From the IMG/VR virus record IMGVR_UViG_3300047368_000327, positions 1 through 64,000 of that record: 64,000 nucleotides of DNA. The stretch is one strand, 5' to 3'. This document shows positions 1,686 through 18,932 of this stretch, one piece after another (position 1 is the stretch's first letter; each line of letters opens with the position of its first letter). Source of the stretch: a virus. A program made the position numbers and the translations under genes. A model generated the notes under the pieces. The model was not told the DNA's origin. It worked only from the letters and a program-made list of their open reading frames with translations, and did no database searches.

Positions 1686-4600
1686 ATGGCAGGAATAAGG
1701 GCAGATGTAAATCTTAATGTAAATACTTCTCAAGCGAAGAGAAGTATGGACAGGGCTGCGGCCGAGATAAATAAAGTCGTAAATAATATAGGCGGCAAAC
1801 AAATATCTTTTAATGTTAATGGTAGAAGTTTTACTCAGCCTCTTGGTCGAATCACTGCTTCGGCGAACGAATTCACTAAATCGCTGGAAGCTTCTAATGC
1901 GCGTGTTATAGCTTTTGGAGCTTCAGTAGGAATAATAAATGGAATATCTGATGCCTTTAAGAATTTAGTTCTTGAGACGGTAAAGTTTGAAAAAACATTG
2001 ATGGATATTAATGTGGTTCTGAACGCCTCTTCTCAATCTTTGCAGGAATTTGGTAGTGGATTATTTGATGTAGCTAAAAACACGGCTCAATCCTTTACTG
2101 TGGCATCTGAGGCTGCTTTAGAGTTTTCACGTCAAGGTTTAACCATGGAAGAGGTTCTAATCAGAACAAATGATGCGTTGACTTTGACTAGGTTGACCGG
2201 GCTAAAAGCTGCTGAAGCCGTATCTGGGTTAACGGCTGCGGTAAATGCATTCGGGCAGGCAGGCTTAAGTACTACAGATATTATTGATAAGCTAGCTGCA
2301 GTAGATGTTCAGTTTGCTGTAAGTTCAGAAGATTTAATTAATGCATTAGAGCGAACTGGAGCAGTCGCAATTGACGCAGGTGTTGAAATAGACAGCTTGA
2401 TTGGTTTGGTTACAGCCTTGCAGCAAACAACTGCTCGTGGTGGCGCAGTTATAGGTAATGGACTTAAAACTATATTTACCAGAATACAAAGGCCTCAGTC
2501 TATACAGCAATTAGAAGATATGGGTATAGCTGTAAAGAATTTATCTGGAGCAATATTGCCTGCCGATAAGATCATGCTAAATATGGCGAAGTCTTTTGAC
2601 TCGTTAACTCAGTCTCAGCAATCAAACATAGTTCAGTTTTCAGCTGGAATATTTCAGGCCAATGTATTTAGAGCAGCCTTGAAAGATTTATCGAAGGAAC
2701 AGAGTATTCAAGCTCAAGCTACCAAAATAGCTGGAGATGCTTCTGGGGATGCTGCCGTAAAAAACGAGATGCTCAACAAGACCATGTCTGCAATGGCGTC
2801 TCAAACTGTTTCATCAATTGAGGAGCTTGCTGAAACAATTGGTAAGTTAGCTTTTACCCCAGAAATAGGAGGGTTTTTATCTTTTATTCAGGATGGAGTA
2901 GAGGGCATAAAAAACATGCTTGGAGGTGGAGAAGAAGAGGGAGATGCTTTTGCCAAAGGCTTGGTTAAGGGTATAGGCAATGTTCTAACTGGACCAGCAG
3001 CAATAGCTTTCGGCGCAATTTTTATAAAACTTTTTGTAAATATATCTAAGTTCGCAAATAACTCACTGAAAGATGTGCTTGGAATAGTTAGTGAAAAGGA
3101 TAAAGTTAAGCAAATGGAAGAATCCATAACCAAGGCTTTATCTGATAATTTAAAACTGCAAGAGGGTTTAAATAATTTAGAAGGTGATCGAAAAGCTCAA
3201 GAGCAATTCATATTAGGTATAATCGAGAAACAAAATAAAGCAATGGCGGAGCAAGCAAATCTGGCTGCGCGTTTAGCTAAACCTTTGGTTAGGGCTGGGA
3301 TAAATCCAGATTTCACTTCTTCAGCGCCAGTTACCGCTTCATCCGGAGTACTGCCAGAGGCGGCCAAAAAAGAAAGAAAAGGAGCTTCTCGGGGTGGTTA
3401 TTCAGCAGGAGCCGTGGACTCAATGGATATTCCTGGGATGGGGGAAGTTGTTTATAATAAAGCTGAAAAAGTAAAGCAGTTCCCAGGGATGAGACAACCT
3501 GCAATTATGCCTCCCGAGCAAAGTAGGGCAGGAAGAACTTACAGAGATGCTTTTGCTGGTCAGCACGGGTTTGATCCGTATGCTAGTGGGGGATTAATTC
3601 CTAATTTTGCAAGAATGGAGGGTAGTAAATTAGTTTTAGATAAATCAAAGATGAAATTAATGGCAGATCCTCAACAAGCTAGGGTTGGTCAAAAGATAAG
3701 GAAAAGCTATGCAGAACTATCAAATAGTGGTCGACCTGTAAATATAGAAGCTGATATCAATAATCTTACTGTTGGCCGAGGCGGCAGTCATACAGCTAAA
3801 ATAAAAGACGTCCTTTCATTTTTAAGGAGCGAGGGAGTAGGAAGTATAGAAAGACCTTTTGATTTAGAAAAACTACCATTCAGGGGGAAAAAAGATGGTC
3901 AAGGAGCAGAAAAGGCTAGCCTTAAGGCTTTAGGTACTAAATATTTTTCAACTGGAGGTAAATCAGGAGACGAGACTTTTCCAGTCGATCTTGCTGGTTT
4001 AGATATGACTCCTTATGAAGTAAAGTCAGGGCAATGGAAGCTTCCGAATGTTTTATTGAAGAGTCTTCGTTTGTATACTGATGATGGATTATTGACTTTT
4101 GCTGAAAAGTATTTTGGGGCTGACCGAGAAATGATTCAGGAGGCCAGGGATGAGAAATTTAAAAAATCATCTGGTTTATTAAAAAAGAAAGGCTTTATAA
4201 AAGAAGGCTTAAATAGAAAAGAACAAGAAGATATAATAAATAGATTTCTTCTTCATGGTGGCTTAATTCCTAATTTTGCTGACGATAAGGTTAAGCCTGT
4301 TAAATCTATAGCTAATATTATTGACGGAGATAGTATAGAGGCCGATATTTTAGTTGGCACTCAAAGAGTAGATCACAGATTGCAAGGAGTAGATGCTGTA
4401 GAAAAAAATCAAGCATATGGGACTAGAGCTACAACTATAGCTAAAAACTTTTACAATGATGATAAAAAGGGAAGACTAAGACTTAGAGATCGTATAGTCC
4501 AAGATGGAAAAGCTGCATACGGAAGAGGGCTTTTTAAAGATCAAGATTTAGCAAGGACTTTAATTGAAAAAGGATATGGAGTTCCTGATGCTGGATACCT

Positions 4601-7600
4601 AAATAAATCAGAATACTTTAAATATCAAGAAATTGCTGAGAAAGCCAAAAGTAAGGGTGTTGGTATATGGAGAGACAAAACTAAAAAGACAGGAAAATAT
4701 AGGCATCCTAAAGCACAATTTTATTTACATCAGCAAGGTATAGTTCAAAAGGCTGACAAGTGGAAAGATGTTACTGTTTCAGACACTAGATTTTATAAAG
4801 AAGGGGTTAACTTATCAAATAAAAAATTTAAAGGTTATGCTGATGGCGGTAGAAAGTTTAGGCATTCTGGATTGATTCCCAATTTTATTGACACGAGAAC
4901 TCGTCAGCAAAAAATTCAAGACGTATTACGTGATCCAGCAAATAAAGGTATTAATTTCAAGGGTGGAGCCCTTGCTCCGATGTCAATTAAATCTAAGAAC
5001 ATGTTTCACCAAATGTTCTTGGAGAGTTATGTAAACAAAGGATTGGAAAGCGATTACGATATGCTCGTAAAGATGGGTTATGATCCTCAAGAAATAACTG
5101 CAGCAAGAAAACACAAGCAAAAGGGTGGAAAAGTTAATGTTTTAGCCAAAGGCCATGTGCCCAACTTTGCGGCTAGCTGGAAAAGATTTAAAAAATTTGA
5201 TAAAAATCAATACCTTAAAAGTTTAAAAAAGGGCAAAAGCAATAACGAGCAAGCCAAGATCGATGCATACGTAAAAGCCGCAGGAGGAGCCCAAAAGTTT
5301 CAAAGATTGAATGAGAAGTTTGGGTTAGATAAAGTTGACGACATATTTCAGATACTTGGATTTGCAAAAGGTTATGTCCCTAATTTTGCAAACCCTTTAG
5401 AAGACGCTATATCAAGAGAAAAAGCAGCAGGAGTTCCTCAAGAAAGAATCAGAGTAGAAAAAAGTAGTCAATTGAAGGGTCCGCAAAACCCTATGGGGCT
5501 AGCCGTAACTAATACGAGAGATGAACCGGCGGGAGTGCAACAAGGAATACGTCGCGCTAAAAGCATGGGGGTTAACCCAAAAGAGCATGGAGCTAACGTT
5601 GGCTTTGTGCCCAATTTTGAAAGCGATGATTCCAGGGTTCAGAGACTAGAAAAAGGCACCTCAGTAAAAGTAGGTTTCAAAGATCTTGAGAACTCCGTAA
5701 AAAAACTCTCATCATCTGTAGATAAAGCCGCTAAAAAAATCAGCGAAAACCAAAAGAAAATTGATAATAAAAGTGCCTCGTTAAATAAGGAAGAGCTACT
5801 AAAAAACGAGAATGATATTATCAAAAAAATGACGACGGCCAAGAAGGGGGAATTAAGAGGTCTTAAAGCGCAGTTTGATGCGAACTTAAAACTTAGGGAG
5901 TCTGTACATGAATCCACTAGAGCTATAGATGATTCTTCTGATGCAGAGGGTTCATCTCTTCAGAAGCTTTTCTACATGCAATCTGCGATCAGTTTGGTTA
6001 ATGGTCAATTTGAACAGCTATCAGAAACATCTTCTGGCATGACAAAAGTATTCGCAGATGCTATTCTTGGAGTTAGCAACCTTACCGCCGCATACATTCA
6101 GCAAAAAGAACTTGTTAGTGAGGGCATGAACATGCTTGGAACAAAGAGGAGCGAGTCTTTCTCTTTGGGACAAATTGTAGACCCAGAGGCAAGGCAATCG
6201 AGAAGGAGGGCAGCTGCTGCCGCCGAAGCTAGAGTTTCCGGGTCTAGGGTTGGTAGGGGTGGGGCACTTTCAGGCTTAATCGGGGGCGCAGGTAAACTCA
6301 GTAGAGCGTTTGGTAGATTTTTGCCACTAGTGGGGCAGGCATATACTTTGTTTACTGGATTAAATGAGGCTTTTAAGTTTTTTAATATTGGCGAAATGTT
6401 TGGATTGGAGAAAGGCTCAGGACTGATGGATTTACTGAGCACCACCTCTGAAAGGGCGTCAAAGAAGATAGAAAAACTAGGAGAAAGTACGGATAAATTG
6501 CAATCAGCATTTGAGAGCTTGCAGACTCAATCTCAGAATAATGAAAAAATAGATGAGCTGGAGATCTTGGGCGCAAGAAGAACCCAAAAACAAGAGCTAA
6601 AGTTGCAAGAGCTGAAGCTAAAGGGTTTTGATTTAGAGGTAAAATCCCAAGAAGCAATGTCTGCGTTATTGGACGAAAATATGGTTGGATCAAAAGTTGC
6701 TCAGAAATTTACTGAGGAATTAGCTAAGGGTACAACTGGCAATGAAGACTACTCTAGGATCATAAAAGAAGTTATAGCCGCTCAAAGGAAGCAAATGTCG
6801 TTTCTGCAGGGAACGAAATCTTTTGGAGAGTTGATTGATAAAAAACTCGATGTATTTTCCGCCGATAAAGGTGAGGAAAAATTTCTTAAATCTGCAGCAA
6901 AAATGAGAGGCTCTCAGCTTGGAATGGGGCTTTCTAGTGTTCTAGCTGGAGAAGAAAGCGCTGAAACGGAAGATAGACTTAAGATTTTAAATAGAAACAT
7001 TGCCGCCTTATCAAAGGAAACAAGCGTTGATTTAACAAGCATGGGCGATTTAAGCAGTTTAACCGATAGGCTTTCTTCTGGGCTAAAAGGTACTGAGAAT
7101 TTTGATTCAGAAATGATTGCGTCACAGATCAATATGCTGGGAAACAATATTGACGAAGCTATAGATAACACCTCAGGCTTACACAAGGTTGAATCAGAGG
7201 CTTTTGGTGGGGCAATGGAGAAAATAGTTTCGCAGCTTAGAATATTCAAAAAACAACTAGAGGGAGAGTCTGAAAGAAAGCAAGAAGTTCAGCTTAAAAA
7301 AGAATACATAGAGGCATACAAACAAGTAATCTTCGAGATTGGTGAATTCAGAAAAAACACGAAGCACGAGTCAAAGCTATCTCTCGAGGCATTAAAACAT
7401 TCAAGTTCCATACTTCTCTCTAGCGAGAAGCTATCATTGCAATACAATGCTATCGAAAAAGAAGCCGCTATATCTCTCGAGTTCGCAAGAAAGAGAAACG
7501 AAATAGACAGTAAATTTACAAACGATTTGCAGGCTGCAGAAATCGGAGTCATTGACAGCTTAAATAAAACTAGGGATACGTATTTAAACACTGAAGCTTT

Positions 7601-10600
7601 AGCCTCCATGTTTAATAAAAAAGGATCCGAGGCTGATAAGGCGGTAGGAGAGCTAAAGAAGAAAATTAATGAAGGAGTAAAAGCTACAGACTTTTCAGCG
7701 GTGCAAACCGAACTGGGCATAACGCTTGACAGCTCTGCAATGGATTCAATAAATAAGATATTTCAGGACGTAGCAGATGAGTCGAAAAATTTTAATAGCA
7801 ATATTCAAATAATGACAATGCTCGCAAAAAAACATGGCGAGATTCTTGACTCAAATAATTCTGCAGCCTTAATAACATTATTACATCAAAAAGGAATTGT
7901 TAATATAAGTGCAGAAGATTTAATTAAAGCAAAACAAATTTTAAAAGAAAAAGACAGAAAGCTTGAATCATTAAAACAGTCAGCAGACAATCAAAAAGCC
8001 ATAACTGACCAAAACGAAAAAGAAAGACTTATTTCGGAAAAAACCGTAAAGGGCGCTACCGCATTATTTAGGCATTTGGGAATGGATGTTGATGCTCAAG
8101 CCGCGATAACCAAGAACCGTGAAAACATTCTAAAAAGCATAAAAGGCGAAGCCATGCATATGGCCGTAACAAACAAGCAGGGCGAGGGTTTGGCGTCAGC
8201 AGTAGCTCAAAGTTTAGAGATGCAACAAAAAGGTCTCGAGTCGCAAAAGGAGAAAAATAGAAATGACGCGATTGCGGCCGTGTTATCTCTTAGACAATTA
8301 GAGGCTCAGACAGGTGCGCTCGCTGAATCTGAAGACAATAAAATTATTTTAGAAGCTAAAAATAAGAGCGAAATTTTAAATGCCGAAAGGGCTGCTCAAG
8401 AATCGCAATCAAGGTTGGAGTTTTTAAGTGGTCAGAAAAGCCGATCCGAGTTAGTAAAGCAACAGCTTGCTAAGGAAATTGCAGATTTAAGAAGTGGTAA
8501 TTTATTGGCGGCTGAAAAGAATAAACAACTATCAGAAGGTAAGGCTCTTACCGAACTAGTTGGAGAGCAAAGAGAGCAAGCGCTTCATTCCGCCAGGCTG
8601 GAAGCTTTAATTGCAGCGGAAAACGCAATACTTCTCACTGAGAAAGGCAAGCAGGCTAAACTAATCCAGCAGGCAAATGAATTACAGGAAGCCTCCAACA
8701 AGTTGACTGAATTTCAAAATGCAATAACTAAAGCAAAGGTAGATAAGAGGGCTTTGGCCGTTACTGCTGGGGCTGATATTGGAATTGAGAAAGCTAATGC
8801 GATTGCGTCAACAAGAACCGCAGGGATGAGGGCTCAAATAGATCCTAGTGCTGAAAATATGGCTGCTTATGCTGCTTCGCTTGAGGAGACTAATAAATTG
8901 CTTGGTAATGGTAGTAGAGCAATGGATAGGCTTAGATCAAAAATGGCAGAACTTAATGTTGGTGCAGAAAATCTTGGTGCTGATTTAGTGGATATTGGAA
9001 TTGATAATGCAAGAAGTGGGCTTAAGCAGTTGTTCAAGGATATTGGTAGCGGTTCAAAAAGCGCAAGTGAGGCATGGTCTGACTTTGGTCTAGGCCTTGC
9101 GGATCAATTGCTTGATCGAATGATGGACGCAAACATAGATAAGATTTTAAAAGACTTGACATTTGCGTTTACCGGAGAAGAAGGAAAATCTGACGAAGCT
9201 AAAATGACTGATGAGATGCGTCATTTTGGTGGGGTACTTGAAAAACTTAATACTCCATTGGGAGACTTAACTTCTGAAGTTAGAGCTCTTAAGGAGGTTA
9301 TGCAGAATCAAATTTCAAAAGAAGAGGGTGTTAATACGCCACCTGATGCAAAAATACCTGATGGTTCTACTTTTAAGCCAGGTCAAAGCCCTGGTGGAGC
9401 TTTTGCGGATGTACAGATACAATCACAAATAGCCAAAGACATACAGGGTGCTAAAACATTCGTGAAAACATTTAAAGACGCTTCGATAGATATATTTACG
9501 GACTTTGCGAGTAGGGCAATTGGTATTTTTAAGGGGTTAACTCAGTCTCAAGCGACAGAGGCAGGAACTGCTAAATCAAAGGAATATAGAACCACAGATC
9601 TTTACGAGGCTCAGGATGAATTAAGTAGTTTTAAACAAAATAATCTTTTTAAGCCTAAACCAAAACAAATAAATCAAATGAATTTTTCAGAGAAAGGTGA
9701 TTACGTTTTGGAACAACTGATGCCTATAAATGAAGAAATGCAGATGTCAGAGTATAAAGAGCAAAGATCAAACATCTTTAACCAGGAAGCGAAAAACAAT
9801 ATAATAGCTAAATCCATTGAAGAAAAAAAACTTAAAGAACTTGAAGAACGACTTGCCCAGGTGAAGAAAATAGAAAACCCAAGTCGTGGTGAACATCAGG
9901 AACTAAAAACACTTAAAACTGAAATAAATGAAAGCAAAGGAAAAATTAAAGATCTTGGAAAAAAAATAAAGCCAGTTATAGAAAATCTCGAAGGATTAGA
10001 TGAAGAATTTAATCAAGCAAAAAGCGCACTTCAAGAATTAACAAGTAAAGTAGGCGAGATAAATAAGAACTTGCGCCTTCAGGAGATCAATATTCCAGAA
10101 TTGCAAACCTCAACAGATCGGCTGATGCAAAATTCAAATCCAGAAGCTTATAAGATTCTAACCGGAGGAATGTTGTCAGGCGGCAAAATACAGCACTTCG
10201 CAAAGGGCGGATTTGTAGACGGGCCAGCAGGTGTAGATAAAGTTCCTGCAATGTTAACGGCGGGAGAATATGTCGTACCAAAAGAACAAGCAAAGCAATT
10301 CAAGCATAGCGGCGGAGAGATACAGAATTTTTCAATAGGTGGAATGGCCAAAGAGCTAAACAACCCAAACACTGAAAGCAGGCCAATCAGGGGAGCTCAA
10401 GGGGTGACACAGTTACTGGTCATGAACGAAGTCGCTCGCGGGGTGGCTAAATATTTAGAAAAGCCAAAAGATGACGGGCCTCCGACATTTGATAAAAATA
10501 AATTCAACAATTTAGACCTAAGGTCAGATGTAAACATTAAGCGTGGAGACCCCAGGTTGAGTGCAAGATTTTTAGCTAAAGATCCAGTGATGCAGGAATA

Positions 10601-11654
10601 CAGAGATTACCTTCTGGAGAAAGCCGCTTACGATGTAGAAAAGAAAAACCAAAAAGTCGACAAAAAAATGCAAACAATCGGCTCTATAGTTTCATTTATG
10701 AGCACCTTTGCGATGGCCGAAATGACAAGTGCTATGAAACCTTATGTTGAGAAAGCGGTTGGATGGGCAAAAGACAAGGCTACCAATTTAACCAAGGGCC
10801 ACATGGGCTTAGGTGAGCATTCTAAAGCTTTTAAGCAAGCAAGAAAGCAGAATATAGACATGGATTACAGCGACCTTAAGGGCGCTGAGTCTACTGGGTA
10901 TTTAATATCTAATGATAATAAAGCTTACGCTATGTCTAGAAAGGGAACTTGGAATCTTGATCCGTCAAAAACTTTAAGCCACAGAAGAGCTCTACAAGAA
11001 AATATAAAGAAGCAATCAACAAAGCGTCAGTCTGGCGGATCAGTACCTGCAATGCTTACCGCAGGAGAAGGTTTTGTTCCAGCAGCAATAGCGAAAAGAA
11101 TTGGCTACGATAATTTAAACAGAATGAATACCACTGGAGATCTCCCGATCATTCAGGGCAAGGGCGGTATAGATAATGTTGGACCAGTGGGTTTAACCGA
11201 GGGAGACTTTATAATCAAGAAGAGCTCAACAGACAAACTTCTTAGAGAAAATCCAAACATGATGAGATTTGCATTGCAAAACCCAGAAGGATTTAAGAGG
11301 GGTGAGCGTGGATACTATGAAGGTGGGGTTGTCGGCGACGCACCAGCGGTACCAACTTCTTCTGTACCGAGAGCAGCGCCAACAAACCGAATTAAAAACT
11401 CTAATCCGGTTGAAATGTTCAACCAATCTTTTAATCAAAAAAGCGAGCCAGCTGTTGCGACCCAGCAAAAAAGTGAAACAACAAACAATATAAACGTTAA
11501 CGTAACCATAGATCAAACCGGCAAAGAGAGTGTGTCAACTGATGGTTCAGCTAGCTCTTACGAAGAAGAACAACAACTTTCACTAAAAATAAAAAGCGCA
11601 GTAATGGATGTTATTAGGGAAGAGAAAAGGATAGGCGGAGAGCTTAGCTCATGA
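1686..11654 (+). CDS. Tail tape measure protein (TP901-type N-terminal domain) with internal cargo modules including SNase and PD-(D/E)xK-like domains
   Basis: 3322 aa. N-terminal TMP signature (FEKTLMDINVV...AALEFSRQG...DKLAAVD...IGNGLKTIFTR), long coiled coil and C-terminal FAKGG..GP..D.VPAMLT.GE motifs. Lies between tube and tip genes. Confidence 0.92.
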   Translation: MAGIRADVNLNVNTSQAKRSMDRAAAEINKVVNNIGGKQISFNVNGRSFTQPLGRITASANEFTKSLEASNARVIAFGASVGIINGISDAFKNLVLETVKFEKTLMDINVVLNASSQSLQEFGSGLFDVAKNTAQSFTVASEAALEFSRQGLTMEEVLIRTNDALTLTRLTGLKAAEAVSGLTAAVNAFGQAGLSTTDIIDKLAAVDVQFAVSSEDLINALERTGAVAIDAGVEIDSLIGLVTALQQTTARGGAVIGNGLKTIFTRIQRPQSIQQLEDMGIAVKNLSGAILPADKIMLNMAKSFDSLTQSQQSNIVQFSAGIFQANVFRAALKDLSKEQSIQAQATKIAGDASGDAAVKNEMLNKTMSAMASQTVSSIEELAETIGKLAFTPEIGGFLSFIQDGVEGIKNMLGGGEEEGDAFAKGLVKGIGNVLTGPAAIAFGAIFIKLFVNISKFANNSLKDVLGIVSEKDKVKQMEESITKALSDNLKLQEGLNNLEGDRKAQEQFILGIIEKQNKAMAEQANLAARLAKPLVRAGINPDFTSSAPVTASSGVLPEAAKKERKGASRGGYSAGAVDSMDIPGMGEVVYNKAEKVKQFPGMRQPAIMPPEQSRAGRTYRDAFAGQHGFDPYASGGLIPNFARMEGSKLVLDKSKMKLMADPQQARVGQKIRKSYAELSNSGRPVNIEADINNLTVGRGGSHTAKIKDVLSFLRSEGVGSIERPFDLEKLPFRGKKDGQGAEKASLKALGTKYFSTGGKSGDETFPVDLAGLDMTPYEVKSGQWKLPNVLLKSLRLYTDDGLLTFAEKYFGADREMIQEARDEKFKKSSGLLKKKGFIKEGLNRKEQEDIINRFLLHGGLIPNFADDKVKPVKSIANIIDGDSIEADILVGTQRVDHRLQGVDAVEKNQAYGTRATTIAKNFYNDDKKGRLRLRDRIVQDGKAAYGRGLFKDQDLARTLIEKGYGVPDAGYLNKSEYFKYQEIAEKAKSKGVGIWRDKTKKTGKYRHPKAQFYLHQQGIVQKADKWKDVTVSDTRFYKEGVNLSNKKFKGYADGGRKFRHSGLIPNFIDTRTRQQKIQDVLRDPANKGINFKGGALAPMSIKSKNMFHQMFLESYVNKGLESDYDMLVKMGYDPQEITAARKHKQKGGKVNVLAKGHVPNFAASWKRFKKFDKNQYLKSLKKGKSNNEQAKIDAYVKAAGGAQKFQRLNEKFGLDKVDDIFQILGFAKGYVPNFANPLEDAISREKAAGVPQERIRVEKSSQLKGPQNPMGLAVTNTRDEPAGVQQGIRRAKSMGVNPKEHGANVGFVPNFESDDSRVQRLEKGTSVKVGFKDLENSVKKLSSSVDKAAKKISENQKKIDNKSASLNKEELLKNENDIIKKMTTAKKGELRGLKAQFDANLKLRESVHESTRAIDDSSDAEGSSLQKLFYMQSAISLVNGQFEQLSETSSGMTKVFADAILGVSNLTAAYIQQKELVSEGMNMLGTKRSESFSLGQIVDPEARQSRRRAAAAAEARVSGSRVGRGGALSGLIGGAGKLSRAFGRFLPLVGQAYTLFTGLNEAFKFFNIGEMFGLEKGSGLMDLLSTTSERASKKIEKLGESTDKLQSAFESLQTQSQNNEKIDELEILGARRTQKQELKLQELKLKGFDLEVKSQEAMSALLDENMVGSKVAQKFTEELAKGTTGNEDYSRIIKEVIAAQRKQMSFLQGTKSFGELIDKKLDVFSADKGEEKFLKSAAKMRGSQLGMGLSSVLAGEESAETEDRLKILNRNIAALSKETSVDLTSMGDLSSLTDRLSSGLKGTENFDSEMIASQINMLGNNIDEAIDNTSGLHKVESEAFGGAMEKIVSQLRIFKKQLEGESERKQEVQLKKEYIEAYKQVIFEIGEFRKNTKHESKLSLEALKHSSSILLSSEKLSLQYNAIEKEAAISLEFARKRNEIDSKFTNDLQAAEIGVIDSLNKTRDTYLNTEALASMFNKKGSEADKAVGELKKKINEGVKATDFSAVQTELGITLDSSAMDSINKIFQDVADESKNFNSNIQIMTMLAKKHGEILDSNNSAALITLLHQKGIVNISAEDLIKAKQILKEKDRKLESLKQSADNQKAITDQNEKERLISEKTVKGATALFRHLGMDVDAQAAITKNRENILKSIKGEAMHMAVTNKQGEGLASAVAQSLEMQQKGLESQKEKNRNDAIAAVLSLRQLEAQTGALAESEDNKIILEAKNKSEILNAERAAQESQSRLEFLSGQKSRSELVKQQLAKEIADLRSGNLLAAEKNKQLSEGKALTELVGEQREQALHSARLEALIAAENAILLTEKGKQAKLIQQANELQEASNKLTEFQNAITKAKVDKRALAVTAGADIGIEKANAIASTRTAGMRAQIDPSAENMAAYAASLEETNKLLGNGSRAMDRLRSKMAELNVGAENLGADLVDIGIDNARSGLKQLFKDIGSGSKSASEAWSDFGLGLADQLLDRMMDANIDKILKDLTFAFTGEEGKSDEAKMTDEMRHFGGVLEKLNTPLGDLTSEVRALKEVMQNQISKEEGVNTPPDAKIPDGSTFKPGQSPGGAFADVQIQSQIAKDIQGAKTFVKTFKDASIDIFTDFASRAIGIFKGLTQSQATEAGTAKSKEYRTTDLYEAQDELSSFKQNNLFKPKPKQINQMNFSEKGDYVLEQLMPINEEMQMSEYKEQRSNIFNQEAKNNIIAKSIEEKKLKELEERLAQVKKIENPSRGEHQELKTLKTEINESKGKIKDLGKKIKPVIENLEGLDEEFNQAKSALQELTSKVGEINKNLRLQEINIPELQTSTDRLMQNSNPEAYKILTGGMLSGGKIQHFAKGGFVDGPAGVDKVPAMLTAGEYVVPKEQAKQFKHSGGEIQNFSIGGMAKELNNPNTESRPIRGAQGVTQLLVMNEVARGVAKYLEKPKDDGPPTFDKNKFNNLDLRSDVNIKRGDPRLSARFLAKDPVMQEYRDYLLEKAAYDVEKKNQKVDKKMQTIGSIVSFMSTFAMAEMTSAMKPYVEKAVGWAKDKATNLTKGHMGLGEHSKAFKQARKQNIDMDYSDLKGAESTGYLISNDNKAYAMSRKGTWNLDPSKTLSHRRALQENIKKQSTKRQSGGSVPAMLTAGEGFVPAAIAKRIGYDNLNRMNTTGDLPIIQGKGGIDNVGPVGLTEGDFIIKKSSTDKLLRENPNMMRFALQNPEGFKRGERGYYEGGVVGDAPAVPTSSVPRAAPTNRIKNSNPVEMFNQSFNQKSEPAVATQQKSETTNNINVNVTIDQTGKESVSTDGSASSYEEEQQLSLKIKSAVMDVIREEKRIGGELSS
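3591..5621 (+). repeat. Six dispersed in-frame GxxPNF repeats in the TMP (3591, 4260, 4869, 5151, 5370, 5601)
   Basis: GLIPNFA, GLIPNFA, GLIPNFI, GHVPNFA, GYVPNFA, GFVPNFE. The first two are 19/20 identical at DNA level (GGMTTAATTCCTAATTTTGC). Confidence 0.9.
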
Positions 11655-12679: not shown

Positions 12680-13875
12680 GCAAGCCTTTTTACAGATATG
12701 AAGATGTGCCTCTATTGATGGCCTCTGAAGGTGAAGAGCCCGTAATGGTATTCGCAAATAGAGCTGGACTTTCTGCAAGCCAACCAATTCAAGCTAAAAA
12801 ATTCGTAGAAGATTATAATATATCTTTCGCTCTTCAAACTGGAGATATACATTTTACTGGAGCATATGAGTCAGGCTTTCTCATGGGTCCAACAAATGGG
12901 CCAGGAGTTAGGATACCAGAATCGGTTGAAAATATATTGAGCGGAGCAAAGATAGCTTATCCTGGAGGTCAGGCGCTATATTTAGCTGAAGATTTGTCGG
13001 CGGGAGATTACCATATAAAAGTGAGATCAACAGGCGAGACGACACTAAGATATGAGGAGGATATAGAGTATGGAGAAGTTGAGGTTTTAAGAAACTATGC
13101 AGCAGGCGGCATCGTTAGGGGTTCGCTCGACGTTACTTATTATATGAATACTGGAAACCTTCATACTTTTGCCGATTTAACAGGGCTGCTAGACCCTAAT
13201 ATTTATCCACAGGTAAATGAAGCTAAAATCACTGGGTCATTCGGAGATTATATATTTGAAGATGCTTACCTAAGAGATCTTTCTTTTTCGGCAGAACCTT
13301 TTCAGATAATACAAGCAAATTTAAGCTTGGATATATATGGAAGGATGTTATATCAGTCAGGGCTAGCAGATTCAATCATTAGCGACTATGGATGCATAAA
13401 AGAAAACCAATTAAGTGTGCCTCATGCAATTAATACTAAGGTAGAAGGCGCATCAGATGTAGGAATAGAGTACCCCTTGAACTTTACATACAAAATAACT
13501 TCAAGAAGAAACCCAGAAGTTCCAGTGCCATTAAGCGGAAAAATGGACGATGATGGTGAGCTGCCGGTAAGAGTCACAAAAGAAGATATAGACATTAGTA
13601 TAAGAATAGAGGGCGAAAAGCTTGATCCATTTTTAAAAATATCAGGACAAAGAGCTGACGTTACAGTAAGTTTATCAGATATAGGTTTCAGCAAAGAATT
13701 TACTGACAATAACCAAGGGCTAATGAAGGAGTTCAGATTGGCTGGAAGTTTGGTTCACCCGGATTTACCATCTCAAGAATTAAAAGACTACGGAGTAGTT
13801 GAAGAAGATAATCTTAGCGTATCGGAGGGCGGATTTCTGCAGGGCTCCGCTACCATAAAACAGTCTTACAGATAA
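12676..13875 (+). CDS. Putative tail structural protein (tube-like fold)
   Basis: 399 aa, beta-rich, translationally coupled within the tail operon. Confidence 0.45.
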   Translation: MSKPFYRYEDVPLLMASEGEEPVMVFANRAGLSASQPIQAKKFVEDYNISFALQTGDIHFTGAYESGFLMGPTNGPGVRIPESVENILSGAKIAYPGGQALYLAEDLSAGDYHIKVRSTGETTLRYEEDIEYGEVEVLRNYAAGGIVRGSLDVTYYMNTGNLHTFADLTGLLDPNIYPQVNEAKITGSFGDYIFEDAYLRDLSFSAEPFQIIQANLSLDIYGRMLYQSGLADSIISDYGCIKENQLSVPHAINTKVEGASDVGIEYPLNFTYKITSRRNPEVPVPLSGKMDDDGELPVRVTKEDIDISIRIEGEKLDPFLKISGQRADVTVSLSDIGFSKEFTDNNQGLMKEFRLAGSLVHPDLPSQELKDYGVVEEDNLSVSEGGFLQGSATIKQSYR

Positions 13876-16800
13876 TGGACATACCTATATCAGGAATTGG
13901 GGCTAATTCTGTACAATGGTGGCAGGAGAGTGGTGCGAGCAATTTAGTTTTATTAAATGAATTAAGCGGCACCAGGAACCCACCCGAACAGGTTTTCGAA
14001 TCGGACATAGAAAATTACAAACCAAGGGAGCAGACGACTCAAACCGAAGAAGGAATACAGTACTTCATAGAAACAGGAAACAATGTAACACTTTTAGATA
14101 AATATCCATATGTAGACTATAGCCCTGATACCTACTGGAAAGAGAATGATATTTTATCGATAGAAGATTTAACATTTTCTAAAAATAAAAATTTTATTAT
14201 AAATAATAATGCTGAATTATTAATTAGTGAATTTTTTAAACTTAATTCTAGTTTAGGTTATTCTATTAATGTATTAGTAAAGAAGGATACTGAGTCTACT
14301 AGGTTGATAGATGAATATAAAACATATCTAGCTGAAAATCAAAATGGATCTGTTAATATTGGTGATTCGATAGGCGTTGGAATAGGTATAAAGTTTTACG
14401 ATGAAAATGATGTAGAGCTTTTTGCGCCGGACTTAAGGGATACTCACAGATTAATGGCTGGAAGTGAGTTGAATCATACTGAGTATTATAATGTTAATAT
14501 AGATATAGCTGACACTTCAATCCCAGAAGATGCGGTTTCTGGAAGAATAATTTTATTGGTTTACGGATTAAGTTCTGGGGGCTTTGTTTTTAAGAAACCT
14601 TCGGTAAGAAATTTAAGCAAGTTCTTTTACTGCACTAAGGATCACCAGTCTTCTTATTGGAATAGCCCCAATAGTAAAGATGGATTAAAATACTGGACGC
14701 AAGATTTTGTGTGGAGGCCGTCTTATGGATCAAAGTCGGATTTTGTAGCAATTAATGAAGAGCTCAAAATGGGAGAAGGCAAGGACTATGTCACTAACAT
14801 GGCTATCAATGCTCTGCCGATGGAGCTTAATGTAAACTTCAATAATAGAACAGATAAAGAAGCTAAAGCTATTATACATTTTTTACAAGAAAAGTCCTTT
14901 GCATACGATTCGATTTTTAGCCTCGACTATAAGGGAGATAGGCTTTTGTCTAGCGAAATAGGATCCTTTAATTTTAAATATACTTATCCGTATAAAGATG
15001 ATTTAAAGTATACCTGCACCCAATTCAATCACTCAATTGTTTATAGAAATAATAATAATATAAATGCTAAGTTTATATGCAATACCGAGAGTACTCTTTC
15101 TAGCGTGGAAAGTAACGCTGGTTACAATAAAAGGATTGACGCACTTATACCTATATTTATAGATGAAACCACTGAGTTTAAAAAAGGTGAACAGATAACG
15201 CTGAATACCTTTACGCTTGAAGAGGGTGATGGAACCACCACTGTTGACACAAAAAAGATAAAAAGAATAAAACGTTATCCGGAAGACACCCTTCAGGAGG
15301 TCACGGGGGGAATTATAACTTTCACAGAAGATGTCGGACTGGAGGAAGAAGATTGTGTTTTTATAAAAATCGTAGATCCAAAAAATTCTAGATACAACGT
15401 GGGCAAAACGAAGATAAAGAAAAAGATATCCGAAACAGAGTATGCTTTTTGGCCTATACTAGAAGAAGGCTCGGAGGAGGAGGTCGCTAATTACAGGGCA
15501 ACTTCATCCGCTGGAGAAAAGACGTCAATTCGTTGGTTTGACCCAATAGGCGGAGAAAGAATTGAACTCAGGAATAATGAGGTTCAGTCGACTGATCCAG
15601 CTGAGCAATTATGGAGGCCTGTGAGCGAAGACCAAATAATTCCAAGAGAGGAAGTTTATGAAAGTGAAGATGGCGCTCAGTATTTCGAGGAAAGTGGAGT
15701 AGATTTTATTACAACCAGGGGAGAGGAGTTTGTATTTGGGGGCAATATAACGATGAAGCACATGCAGGTTTGCCCCGAGGATTGCTCATATAGTAAAGTT
15801 TTACTTCCCGAAAATGTATCAACTATACCTTCTGTTAGCGTTGACCCAAGCACTGGACTAGAGAGAAAAAGACAGGTTTATTTAAAGAATTACAGAAGAA
15901 TGCAAGTGGACTCAGATATAAATGAAGACACCCTGTCTGTTACTTTTACGCCGCTAGAAAATTTCACTCTAGAGGCGAAGGATGATTTCTGGTTACTAAT
16001 ATCCGCAGTACAAGGAAGAAGTAGCATATATTTAAAAGACGCTAATGAAACTCCAAAGTTTCCATGGTTAGAAGTTAGGAATTTTGACCACAAGCCGAGT
16101 CTCGTTTTTGGCCTAGAGCAAACGCCTGATCACATACAAACAAGCTTCACTAAAACTTATAATAAGCGATATAAAAGAGGTATAAATTCAAATTTATCAA
16201 CATTTAATTTAACGTTCGAAAAAAGAAGCGACGAAGAAGCAGCTGAGATACTGCAGTTTCTGGAAAGCCATTTGGGATACAAGAAGTTTAGGTTTCAAAT
16301 GCCTAGGCCTTACCTAAAGGATGGAAGCTACCTAACTTCCCAAACTAAACCGTACATGTCTACATTTTATTGTCCTAGCTGGGGCCACGATGTTATTTAT
16401 AAAAATAACCATACGATATCGGTTACGTTTATAGAATCTGCAACTTCGATAGAAGAAGATTTAAGGTCAGTATTTGGGATAGGACAAGAAGAGGATAAGC
16501 CTTGTTATGGCGCTGAAATATATGACCCAATAACAACTCATGAACTTTGCACTTTTTCTTCTCAATTAATGGCCGCTAAGGGCGTAGGTTTTGATCTATC
16601 TAAGGAGGCAATAACTACCAAGTCTAAGGCTGTCGATTTAGTTTTCATAGTTGATACTACTGGAAGTATGACTAATTTATACATGGATGTAGAGGGAGAG
16701 ATAATATCAAAATATAGACTAACCATAGATGTAGTTCTAAAAATGATAACAGCTTACGATAAGTATGTGATGCCTGGAACTAAGTCATTTAATGGTATTT

Positions 16801-18932
16801 ATGATGCCCCTGAGCTTTCTTACGGTTCTATTAGTGGGGATGACACGGTCCCTCCTTGGCCTGCGGATAACAAAGTAATGGATAGCTTAATATCAAAGCT
16901 TTATGATCCACTAAAAGAACTAAGAGATTCTCTTGAGAATAATGGATATAATTTAGAAAACTTAGATAGGTTTAAAATAAAAATAGATGAGAAAAGAGTG
17001 AATTTAGGCTTCATCTTAATGGGCGACACTAGACAAATAATACAAGACGTTTCAGATTTGCCAAATTCATTCGATAAAATACAGTCTTATAAAAGTGTTG
17101 ATGTAAAAAATACCAACTGGGACCTAGGGGAAGATTCACCTAGGGCAGTGAGTCAGGCGTTGGCGCAGTTTTACAATAGTCCAAGAGCTGAGCATGTAAC
17201 AGATAGGATTGTTGTTATGCTTAGTGATGGGGTTTTTACTAGTGCAGACGCAACCCAGCCAGGGTCCGACTATAATTCGTACTATAGTCAATACACTCTA
17301 GATATGTGCGCTCAACTAAGAAAGGGTGGAGAGTTAGCTAAGAGAAGGCCTAGCGATGAAGTGTTAAAAAAATACGGATTTCAGTCCCAGAACCCATACA
17401 AGAAGCTTGAAAGCTATAAAGGTAAACCTAGAGATGGAGGAGTCTCTGAATACAATAACCCGGACAATGGAGCGGATAATCCCGATTGGTACGAGGAAGA
17501 AATGCCTACAGTTTTTATGTTTGCTCAAGTTGGTAACCCTCAGTATCTTTCAGTATATGCGCCTAACTATGTATATGATTATGATCAGCCAGCCCCATAT
17601 CTAGATCCGCCAGCAACAAAACCTCAATTCTTCTTTCCGATAACTCAAAAGGATGACCCGAGTAAAGAGGTGACGAGAATGATGGATTTAATAAAAGTAG
17701 TGGAAATGATAACTAGCGATAGCGGTTATCAAAATTTATTTTCTATAGTACTATATAATTGCGGGCCACATAACGTTAGACTCTTGAATACCTTAGTGAA
17801 TATTAAAGGTCAAAAATCTCCAATGAAGTGGACTACAGAAATTTTAAAACAAGGAATAGTCGACGGAGGAAGCAATCAAGACTTAAAGTATACAGCTCAA
17901 GGAGAAGGTATAGATTCTATAGTTAAAGGTTATGGTGGGCAATATTTTGGGGACCCAGATAATCAAGATTTGTTTTCAGATGAAAAGAAGGCTTCCAATA
18001 TATTATGGCAAACATTTAATACCAAATACGAAGTGTCCAGAGAGTCAGTTATTTATGATATAAATGGAGGTTGGAATTTGAATTCGGCCGAAACAGCAGG
18101 AGTTAATAATATAGGGGTTGCATCCAAAGGCATGCCTGTTAGGGTTTTTAGGTCAGACTCAGGACTCGAAATAACAGACTATAATATTGGTTCAGCTAAT
18201 CTATCCAATAATTATCAAGGAAATTATTCTCACTTGCCGTTAATAAAACCGGGAGAAAAGCTTGATTTATTTTTTGGAATAAAGGTTGGTAAGTTAAGCG
18301 ATTTTTCTGAAAGCGTTCAACTCTTGATAAACTCTGATGATGGCACAGCTAAGGAAATGGATTGCTATGCGAATTACGAGTTCGATATAAACGTGCCGTC
18401 TAGCAAGAACACTATAGGAGACGAGCCAGTTAAGGACCCGACAAGTCCGGTTGGATGTAAGAGTGTTTGGATGGATAACGATTACGTAATTAGACATCCA
18501 GTTTATGGCGATATAAAAATAGAATCAAATCCAAGGTTACCAGAAAAAACATGGCGATATAACCAAATTGTATTAGAAAATTTTGAAGATTACCCCGGAG
18601 ATGGGTTTTGCTTTCAGATGAGCAACATTGTATCGCCGCAAACATATACGTTTTCAGAGCCAATCATGAATCCAATTTTAGTTGTATATAGCTTAGGGCG
18701 GCCAAACTTAAACGTCACAATAGAAACCGATAAAGAATTTGCAGATTATAGCGGTGGAGCTGTCCCTACGAGGGGTGCGGCGCCATTAAAAATATTATCA
18801 GACAATAAATTTAGTGGTAGGGAGGGTTTTGGGATGTTAATTTTTCCTGGAGAGCATACAAGTATAACATTAACCCCATACGTTGCAGAGCACTATTATG
18901 ATATCGTATGGGGAATACAAAACTGCCCCTAA
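13875..18932 (+). CDS. Minor tail protein with two lambda gpM-like (distal tail) domains and a vWA domain
   Basis: Two gpM-like repeats: WRPSYGS...INALPMELNVNFNNRTDKEAKAIIHFL and GINSNLSTFNLTFEKRSDEEAAEILQFLESHLGYKKFRF...FYCPSW. vWA MIDAS: DLVFIVDTTGSM...IVVMLSDG. Confidence 0.7.
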   Translation: MDIPISGIGANSVQWWQESGASNLVLLNELSGTRNPPEQVFESDIENYKPREQTTQTEEGIQYFIETGNNVTLLDKYPYVDYSPDTYWKENDILSIEDLTFSKNKNFIINNNAELLISEFFKLNSSLGYSINVLVKKDTESTRLIDEYKTYLAENQNGSVNIGDSIGVGIGIKFYDENDVELFAPDLRDTHRLMAGSELNHTEYYNVNIDIADTSIPEDAVSGRIILLVYGLSSGGFVFKKPSVRNLSKFFYCTKDHQSSYWNSPNSKDGLKYWTQDFVWRPSYGSKSDFVAINEELKMGEGKDYVTNMAINALPMELNVNFNNRTDKEAKAIIHFLQEKSFAYDSIFSLDYKGDRLLSSEIGSFNFKYTYPYKDDLKYTCTQFNHSIVYRNNNNINAKFICNTESTLSSVESNAGYNKRIDALIPIFIDETTEFKKGEQITLNTFTLEEGDGTTTVDTKKIKRIKRYPEDTLQEVTGGIITFTEDVGLEEEDCVFIKIVDPKNSRYNVGKTKIKKKISETEYAFWPILEEGSEEEVANYRATSSAGEKTSIRWFDPIGGERIELRNNEVQSTDPAEQLWRPVSEDQIIPREEVYESEDGAQYFEESGVDFITTRGEEFVFGGNITMKHMQVCPEDCSYSKVLLPENVSTIPSVSVDPSTGLERKRQVYLKNYRRMQVDSDINEDTLSVTFTPLENFTLEAKDDFWLLISAVQGRSSIYLKDANETPKFPWLEVRNFDHKPSLVFGLEQTPDHIQTSFTKTYNKRYKRGINSNLSTFNLTFEKRSDEEAAEILQFLESHLGYKKFRFQMPRPYLKDGSYLTSQTKPYMSTFYCPSWGHDVIYKNNHTISVTFIESATSIEEDLRSVFGIGQEEDKPCYGAEIYDPITTHELCTFSSQLMAAKGVGFDLSKEAITTKSKAVDLVFIVDTTGSMTNLYMDVEGEIISKYRLTIDVVLKMITAYDKYVMPGTKSFNGIYDAPELSYGSISGDDTVPPWPADNKVMDSLISKLYDPLKELRDSLENNGYNLENLDRFKIKIDEKRVNLGFILMGDTRQIIQDVSDLPNSFDKIQSYKSVDVKNTNWDLGEDSPRAVSQALAQFYNSPRAEHVTDRIVVMLSDGVFTSADATQPGSDYNSYYSQYTLDMCAQLRKGGELAKRRPSDEVLKKYGFQSQNPYKKLESYKGKPRDGGVSEYNNPDNGADNPDWYEEEMPTVFMFAQVGNPQYLSVYAPNYVYDYDQPAPYLDPPATKPQFFFPITQKDDPSKEVTRMMDLIKVVEMITSDSGYQNLFSIVLYNCGPHNVRLLNTLVNIKGQKSPMKWTTEILKQGIVDGGSNQDLKYTAQGEGIDSIVKGYGGQYFGDPDNQDLFSDEKKASNILWQTFNTKYEVSRESVIYDINGGWNLNSAETAGVNNIGVASKGMPVRVFRSDSGLEITDYNIGSANLSNNYQGNYSHLPLIKPGEKLDLFFGIKVGKLSDFSESVQLLINSDDGTAKEMDCYANYEFDINVPSSKNTIGDEPVKDPTSPVGCKSVWMDNDYVIRHPVYGDIKIESNPRLPEKTWRYNQIVLENFEDYPGDGFCFQMSNIVSPQTYTFSEPIMNPILVVYSLGRPNLNVTIETDKEFADYSGGAVPTRGAAPLKILSDNKFSGREGFGMLIFPGEHTSITLTPYVAEHYYDIVWGIQNCP

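Follow-up and report, generated by a model that had tools for sequence, protein, structure and literature searches.

Exchangeable basic modules delimited by a repeated peptide in the giant tape measure protein of an uncultured aquatic phage

This study concerns the giant tape measure protein (TMP) encoded in a stretch of 64,000 nucleotides of viral DNA (positions 1 to 64,000 of the IMG/VR record IMGVR_UViG_3300047368_000327, referred to as the window). Between its N-terminal domain and its long C-terminal part, the protein carries an array of small basic modules separated by copies of a six-residue peptide, G-x-[IV]-P-N-F. Alignments with related TMPs indicate that the modules are swapped at this motif, and that cassettes have been exchanged, gained, lost and duplicated in tandem as the array evolved.

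A giant tape measure protein with a repeated PNF peptide

The open reading frame (ORF) at 1686..11654 on the plus strand is the longest gene in the window and encodes 3,322 amino acids (aa). The core of its N-terminal domain is a PhageMin_Tail domain (PF10145; aa 130-316, 2073..2633, +; E 6.8e-22, 78.8 bits against a cut-off of 33.2), and eight TMP families of the PHROG database match the first ~450 residues. Lambda-type tip genes, which correspond to PHROGs 14, 18, 30, 32 and 31 (M-, L-, K-, I- and J-like), lie downstream. Based on PF10145, which scores above its curated cut-off, the product is assigned to the TP901-1/SPbeta-type TMPs. The source, an uncultured large aquatic phage, is represented by a 103.6-kb partial genome with a CheckV completeness of 73%, and relatives were found on complete contigs of 184-214 kb. 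Among cultured phages, a tblastn search with the array region found no match, and the N-terminal TMP domain matches TMPs of Bacillus, Lactococcus and other phages only at 30% identity or less.

A first-pass annotation, made by a model from the DNA alone, had reported six G..PNF repeats in this protein, and all of them were recovered at exactly these residues (aa 636, 859, 1062, 1156, 1229 and 1306). With an expectation of 0.014 copies from composition, the motif is non-random. Encoded on the plus strand throughout, it reads GLIPNF at aa 636-641 (motif 1, 3591..3608), aa 859-864 (motif 2, 4260..4277) and aa 1062-1067 (motif 3, 4869..4886), while the motif search identified the remaining copies as GHVPNF at aa 1156-1161 (motif 4, 5151..5168), GYVPNF at aa 1229-1234 (motif 5, 5370..5387) and GFVPNF at aa 1306-1311 (motif 6, 5601..5618). 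A degenerate copy, GVLPEA (motif 0; aa 554-559, 3345..3362, +), aligns with the intact A-S-x-G-L-I-P-N-F of relatives in which the first copy is located near aa 543. The motif was not found in any other credible ORF of the 103.6-kb contig. In 120 retrieved relatives it occurs 774 times, with 3-11 copies per protein and the consensus a-[SA]-x-G-[LF]-[VI]-P-N-F-A; the aromatic residue is usually followed by Ala or Ser. The connector peptide between the modules measures 8-10 residues.

The five segments between the intact motifs (M1 to M5) comprise 217, 197, 88, 67 and 71 aa. They had been described as basic and mutually unrelated, and this is confirmed by isoelectric points (pI) of 9.6-10.0 and by the lack of any mutual similarity at E<0.05. 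The number of five modules and their lengths likewise stand, but the degenerate motif at aa 554 marks off a further, sixth one, M0 (aa 560-635, family F5; 3363..3590, +), which with a pI of 9.4 is also basic. M0 is conserved in all 23 aligned relatives, with many invariant columns in this alignment (A1), and matches of its hidden Markov model were found in 45 loci.

Comparison with relatives points to cassette exchange at the motif

A search with the array region retrieved at least 439 protein clusters of giant TMPs (1.8-5.8 thousand aa, kaa), and IMG/VR contains at least 263 related loci. The inter-motif segments of retrieved TMPs cluster into families of tightly conserved length, the order and number of which vary between proteins: 194 TMPs contained 160 module families arranged in 141 different architectures. 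Among pairs with N-terminal domains that were at least 95% identical, the architecture differed in 17 of 38. Homology breakpoints were located three or fewer residues from a motif in 56-58% of cases versus 4% for random positions, a figure that is descriptive because the compared TMP pairs are not independent. These data bear out the expectation of the first-pass annotation that module number and identity would vary while the flanks are conserved, with module boundaries linked to the motif; order varies as well, and modules in fixed order with boundaries unlinked to the motif were not seen.

An individual exchange can be followed in the related locus L003. Its DNA is 99% identical to that of the window up to motif 1, and 99% identity restarts at the first base of motif 3. 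Just after motif 1, nucleotide (nt) identity falls from 90-99% to ~60% within ~15 nt, and the protein-level high-scoring segment pair that covers this upstream part stops at aa 864, in motif 2. Between motifs 1 and 3, L003 carries a ~60%-identical allele of M1 and, in place of the staphylococcal nuclease (SNase) module M2 described below, an unrelated module of 328 aa for which no PDB sequence match was found. Together with the alignment of the relatives, this swap supports the modular cassette array that had been proposed from the window alone. Relatives also contain tandem duplicates of modules (F17-F17, F23-F23 and F8-F8 in P0083, P0100, P0119 and P0081), as expected from unequal exchange at shared peptide-coding sequence. 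The smallest arrays consist of just M0, M1-type and M5 modules.

Of 93 representative modules of the relatives, only a handful match Pfam or PHROG families, including DUF7178, a cytidylyltransferase-associated region, PGDYG and polynucleotide kinase, in scans with single sequences that are insensitive to the extent that the SNase representative itself went undetected. A Pfam scan found nothing in the modules of two relatives of 4.5 kaa. The module pool thus appears largely unannotated, and its readable part seems to be enzymatic and nucleic-acid-oriented.

Module content

At least two of the modules had been described as nuclease-looking, and two, M2 and M1, indeed have this appearance. M2 (aa 865-1061, family F6; 4278..4868, +), searched as an isolated module, matches the SNase family PF00565 with an E-value of 3.2e-6 and 28 bits, against a curated cut-off of 21. 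It aligns to the Staphylococcus aureus thermonuclease via its IDGD, R-x4-D-x2-E and YGRG segments, and phmmer matched it to thermonuclease structures with an E-value of 6e-4. D880, D882, R898, D903, E906 and R947 are invariant in 24 of 24 family members, and D882, R898, D903, E906 and R947 are the equivalents of D21, R35, D40, E43 and R87 of the S. aureus enzyme, while the equivalent of T41 is Ala. These similarities identify M2 as an SNase domain with predicted intact catalytic and Ca-site residues.

For M1 (aa 642-858, family F1; 3609..4259, +), an AlphaFold2 model based on a 27-sequence alignment reached a predicted local distance difference test score (pLDDT) of 87.5 and a predicted template modelling score of 0.84, with the motif residues at both ends below a pLDDT of 50. 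M1 is hence predicted to fold as an independent domain with disordered motifs at its ends. The modelled core has an alpha-beta-beta-beta-alpha arrangement, composed (in module numbering) of helix 103-114, strands 118-120, 134-136 and 142-145, and helix 151-159. D133, E143 and K145 (D768, E778 and K780 of the TMP) are invariant and E107 (E742) is at least 90% conserved (n=27). E107 lies on the first helix, D133 precedes strand 134-136, and E143 and K145 are located on strand 142-145; this order of residues on the helix and successive strands is the typical pattern of PD-(D/E)xK nucleases. The top match and several others in VIA-align were PD-(D/E)xK enzymes, all of them weak (FAN1 with Z 2.9, tRNA-splicing endonuclease with 2.2 and FokI with 2.0). 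Foldseek returned no match to PDB and BFVD at E<=0.001, and a profile of M1 had no match among PDB sequences. An exhaustive profile search of 1.84 billion representatives yielded 49 matches, all of which are giant TMPs or, in the case of short matches, TMP fragments, and no free-standing relatives. The model supports a description of M1 as nuclease-like, but not as a proven PD-(D/E)xK member.

M3 (aa 1068-1155, family F2; 4887..5150, +) is present in 88 of the 120 relatives at varying positions in the array, and M5 (aa 1235-1305, family F0; 5388..5600, +), which contains invariant R-E, N-P-x-G-L and D-E-P residues, is found in 96 of them and is almost always the last module. M4 (aa 1162-1228, family F15; 5169..5369, +) is a rare accessory that occurs in 10 of the 120. 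M0, M1, M3 and M5 belong to near-universal families of the TMP lineage, and only the SNase module M2 and M4 are rare accessories. Independent folds, which had been anticipated for the modules, are supported for M1 by its model; a joint model of M3 to M5 was weak (pLDDT 56 overall; 50-76 for M3, 67-82 for M5 and below 50 for M4) and relied on a shallow alignment (A5) with few sequences for M3 and M4, two in the case of M4. Scans against Pfam and NCBIfam revealed nothing for M1, M3, M4 and M5. When M3 to M5 were compared with known structures, VIA-align gave only generic helical matches (Z<=5) and the profile search against PDB sequences gave nothing, while an ESM Atlas search with M5 was without usable match.

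Ruler region and genomic context

The array is followed by aa 1312-3322 (5619..11654, +), a region without family match, with low Gly and Pro content and near-neutral charge. This part of ~2,000 aa would form the helical ruler, and the C-terminal ~480 aa of the TMP are conserved among relatives. The C-terminal part contains a second mosaic stretch with respect to L003 (9543-11026, +), which is not bounded by PNF motifs: no DNA match was found for 9543-10178, identity is 77.5% in 10179-10673, no match was reported for 10674-11026, and identity rises to 99.7% from 11027. A Gly-rich element, G-x-D-x-V-P/G-x3-5-G-E/D-x-V/F-V/I (e.g. 'VPAMLTAGE'), recurs near the C-terminus at ~10230-10310 and 11163-11240 (aa ~2849-2875 and ~3160-3185) and also at aa ~3117-3130, and is kept in relatives. 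A look-alike of this element is located inside module M0.

Directly upstream of the TMP gene, separated by a 90-bp gap, an ORF of 454 aa (231-1595, +) occupies the place expected for tube or chaperone genes. It has no Pfam or PHROG match and is 51% identical to the same-position ORF in the related locus L032; a G/GT-like chaperone pair is absent from the space between this ORF and the TMP gene. Downstream, 13875-18932 (+) encodes a protein of 1,685 aa, which is very large for this position in the tail tip module and in which a lambda gpM-type minor tail domain (PF05939/phrog_14, aa 737-854) is the sole recognisable part. The sheath domain PF04984 was not found in the phage's own genome or in four complete relatives. 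A protein of 922 aa encoded at 94497-97265 of the genome (L001:10498-13266) matches the 'tail sheath' family phrog_15433 (E 2e-50) with its C-terminal half only; as PF04984 is absent, this label is probably misleading.

The genome also encodes an 804-aa double-AAA+ unfoldase of the ClpA/ClpC type at 90531-92945 (G000:C1; L001:6532-8946, +), with Clp_N, AAA, AAA_lid_9, AAA_2 and ClpB_D2-small domains. It is conserved with 42-57% identity in all five complete 184-214-kb relatives, one of which encodes ClpP, and could be a candidate helper for loading or unfolding the TMP modules. Finally, relatives of the TMP (L083-L090) occur in bins of metagenome-assembled genomes from GTDB that are labelled Cellvibrionales, Halobacteriovorax, Flavobacteriaceae, Flavobacterium and Gammaproteobacteria. 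One of these loci, L086 (JAYQMT010000004.1), has a length of 210,818 bp, comparable to a whole phage genome. These are probably binned phage contigs, and their conflicting taxon labels give no reliable host.

Discussion

Enzymes inside TMPs, in the form of muralytic domains or of the RNA polymerase of phage P23-45, and injected multi-domain polyvalent proteins are already known. TMPs with embedded muralytic domains include, in part by record annotation, that of mycobacteriophage TM4 (motif 3) and YomI of SPbeta. In T5, the tube is filled by a pb2 trimer, the C-terminus of which is located in the tip, and cleavage after R1127 separates an enzyme domain, a metallopeptidase, during tail assembly (PMC10038345). 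While an enzyme domain inside the TMP is common to these proteins and the one studied here, their domains are peptidoglycan-directed, near the C-terminus, single and fixed, whereas the array holds several swappable modules in an N-proximal position, of which those that can be identified are nucleic-acid-directed. The N-terminal part of the 5,002-aa TMP gp96 of Thermus phage P23-45 is a virion RNA polymerase that transcribes the pre-early genes (Chaban et al. 2024, PMC10770324). In view of this enzyme, the premise of the first-pass annotation that accessory domains of TMPs are muralytic, and not nuclease arrays, is outdated. Both gp96 and the protein studied here are giant TMPs with a nucleic-acid enzyme in the N-terminal part, upstream of the ruler; the one in gp96 acts in the cytoplasm and is thought to enter with the ejected TMP. 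In contrast to the array, gp96 contains one fixed enzyme without a repeated fencing peptide, and no cassette exchange has been reported for it. A Pfam scan did not detect an RNA polymerase family in the TMP studied here. Since the fusion of an enzyme to a TMP is already known from P23-45, the fenced, swappable array varies a known theme.

Polyvalent proteins are huge mosaic polypeptides with many domains, nucleases among them; entry together with the DNA, followed by processing into units, has been proposed for them in a paper that does not mention TMPs (Iyer et al. 2017, PMC5512222). They resemble the array in that several unrelated conflict-type domains are combined in one mosaic chain, here in the form of six modules within a lineage of 160 families and 141 architectures. 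However, they are associated with heads or conjugation and typically include a processing metallopeptidase (MPTase), whereas the carrier described here is a tail protein in which a short invariant peptide fences every module, and no peptidase or MuF domain was found in it by a single-sequence Pfam scan of limited sensitivity. The effectors Sle1 and Sle2 of the Streptomyces contractile injection system are TMP-related, with modular, exchangeable functional domains, and are cargo in a tail-type tube (PMC13277306). They differ in belonging to contractile, non-viral particles, in their single C-terminal functional domain per effector and in the lack of a PNF-type fencing peptide. Our literature search found no paper that contains the motif strings or describes a fenced TMP array of this kind. 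MARTX toxins are bacterial secreted toxins in which a mosaic array of interchangeable effectors lies between conserved flanks, with short inter-domain release sites at which their own cysteine protease domain cleaves after Leu. There is no homology between MARTX toxins and the TMP array, and the comparison is one of analogy only.

We picture the array as beads on a string: six modules, linked by the short peptide, that follow the N-terminal TMP domain and precede the long ruler. In solved siphophage tails the C-terminus of the TMP lies in the tip, and a TMP that fills the tube lumen in this orientation would release its N-proximal array last, just ahead of the DNA. On this analogy, it is fairly probable that the array leaves the tail at the end of TMP ejection and brings pre-made enzymes into the cell, where their targets may be nucleic acids of the host or of competitors, or the defences of the host. 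The storage of the array in the tube, its delivery and cleavage, and these targets are all inferred. As to the peptide, we tentatively prefer to see it as a processing site that frees the modules, with the cut falling behind the aromatic residue or at Asn-Phe; a docking role that involves no cut is only slightly less likely. Taken to its full extent, this would make the TMP a polyprotein with G-[LF]-[VI]-P-N-[FY] as release site and the tail lumen as a route by which free, exchangeable effector enzymes are delivered ahead of the genome. The cut after the aromatic residue could be the work of a protease, either a dedicated one or one of the host; alternatively, Asn-driven self-cleavage could occur at N-F. 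We consider this combined proposal possible, but rather doubtful as a whole.

A number of findings weigh against the reading of the array as enzymes delivered into the cell. According to a geometric estimate, three chains of folded beads of 20-25 kDa do not fit side by side in a lumen of ~4 nm, so that a non-native (unfolded or alternative) stored state has to be assumed. No conserved protease was found in the five complete relatives (ClpP in one of five, an HK97-type protease in none), and the Pfam scan of the TMP, as mentioned above, found no peptidase domain. M1 has no convincing match to a known nuclease fold (none in Foldseek, Z 2.9 at best), and its restriction to TMPs fits a dedicated TMP function equally well as a role as cargo. 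The models of M3 and M4 are of low confidence. Furthermore, the near-universal modules, four of the six, may serve tail assembly or ejection instead of an effector role.

Three other explanations of the repeat and the array have to be weighed. As exchange junctions lie at the repeat, it could be a DNA-level recombination site of a shufflon- or integron-like type, recognised by a recombinase, with peptide conservation being secondary. Likeness of the repeats at the DNA level, which the first-pass annotation had noted, is indeed found for copies 1 and 2 (21 of 24 nt), but other pairs share only 11-18 of 24. Synonymous positions vary without constraint, and the codons used for G, P, N and F in ~490 motif copies of 80 related loci match the background of the rest of the gene, i.e. 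P, N and F are invariant as amino acids while their codons are not. The DNA-site hypothesis was rejected on this codon usage, and we regard it as extremely improbable. Codon use at background level indicates that selection acts on the peptide, not on a DNA site, so that the motif appears to be conserved as peptide and recombination at the short shared sequence would be a by-product. The earlier suggestion that the repeats are microhomologies for module exchange consequently agrees with the position of the junctions, but not as the function for which the motif is kept. An invariant peptide within a disordered connector must, moreover, be read by something. Instead of a protease, this reader might be one partner shared by all modules, for instance the lumen of the tube, a chaperone of assembly or the phage's ClpA/C-type unfoldase, for which the peptide would be a docking or threading element and not a cleavage site; the modules would then never be released, remain in the TMP and work as tethered enzymes at the inner mouth of the TMP channel, a location also proposed for the RNA polymerase of P23-45. 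Uniformly basic modules would suit a tube lumen that is electronegative. In the model of the isolated domain the peptide is disordered, as would be the case for a short linear binding motif, and the complete relatives lack a conserved protease, while all five, like the phage's own genome, encode the ClpA/C-type unfoldase. The authors of the P23-45 study, too, propose a lasting association of the virion RNA polymerase with the TMP pore (PMC10770324). On the other hand, a mere hinge needs no P-N-F that is invariant over 774 copies, and the enzyme domain of T5 pb2 is cut from the TMP during assembly (PMC10038345). We regard permanent tethering as possible, though with clear reservations.

It may also be that the modules are not effectors at all and that the array serves the structure of the tail or its handling of DNA. 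As basic nuclease-fold domains at the head-proximal end of the TMP, the modules would bind or trim the leading end of the phage genome, or fill and plug the proximal part of the tube, and their turnover would be a sign of adaptation in host range or assembly. This would fit the near-universal core of M0, M1-type and M5 modules, which alone make up the smallest arrays, the lack of M1 relatives outside TMPs, the basic nature of all modules, and the position of the N-proximal array, which would adjoin the end of the DNA in a TMP with the orientation seen in T5. However, 160 families and rapid swapping between near-identical phages form a pattern of conflict-driven accessory cargo, and among the accessory modules are a nuclease of the non-specific, secreted type, the active site of which appears intact, as well as others that match kinase and nucleotidyltransferase families. 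A purely structural role of the array is therefore improbable in our view.

Should the modules be delivered, a variable set of ready-made enzymes would enter the cell ahead of all phage gene expression, at the time when host defences act, and the array would catalogue more than 150 domains, most of them unannotated, as candidates for takeover or anti-defence functions. As each module is delimited by a six-residue tag, the domains can be cloned and tested singly. The fencing peptide, be it for processing or docking, would represent a novel type of short linear signal among the proteins of virions, and the natural cassette exchange suggests a route for loading chosen proteins into siphophage tails. 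The finding made in P23-45, i.e. one TMP-fused enzyme, would thereby be extended to a whole, widespread lineage of aquatic phages. If the polyprotein proposal were true, this lineage would possess a naturally programmable, cassette-based system for protein injection by a non-contractile tail, drawing on more than 150 effector families, most of which are unknown.

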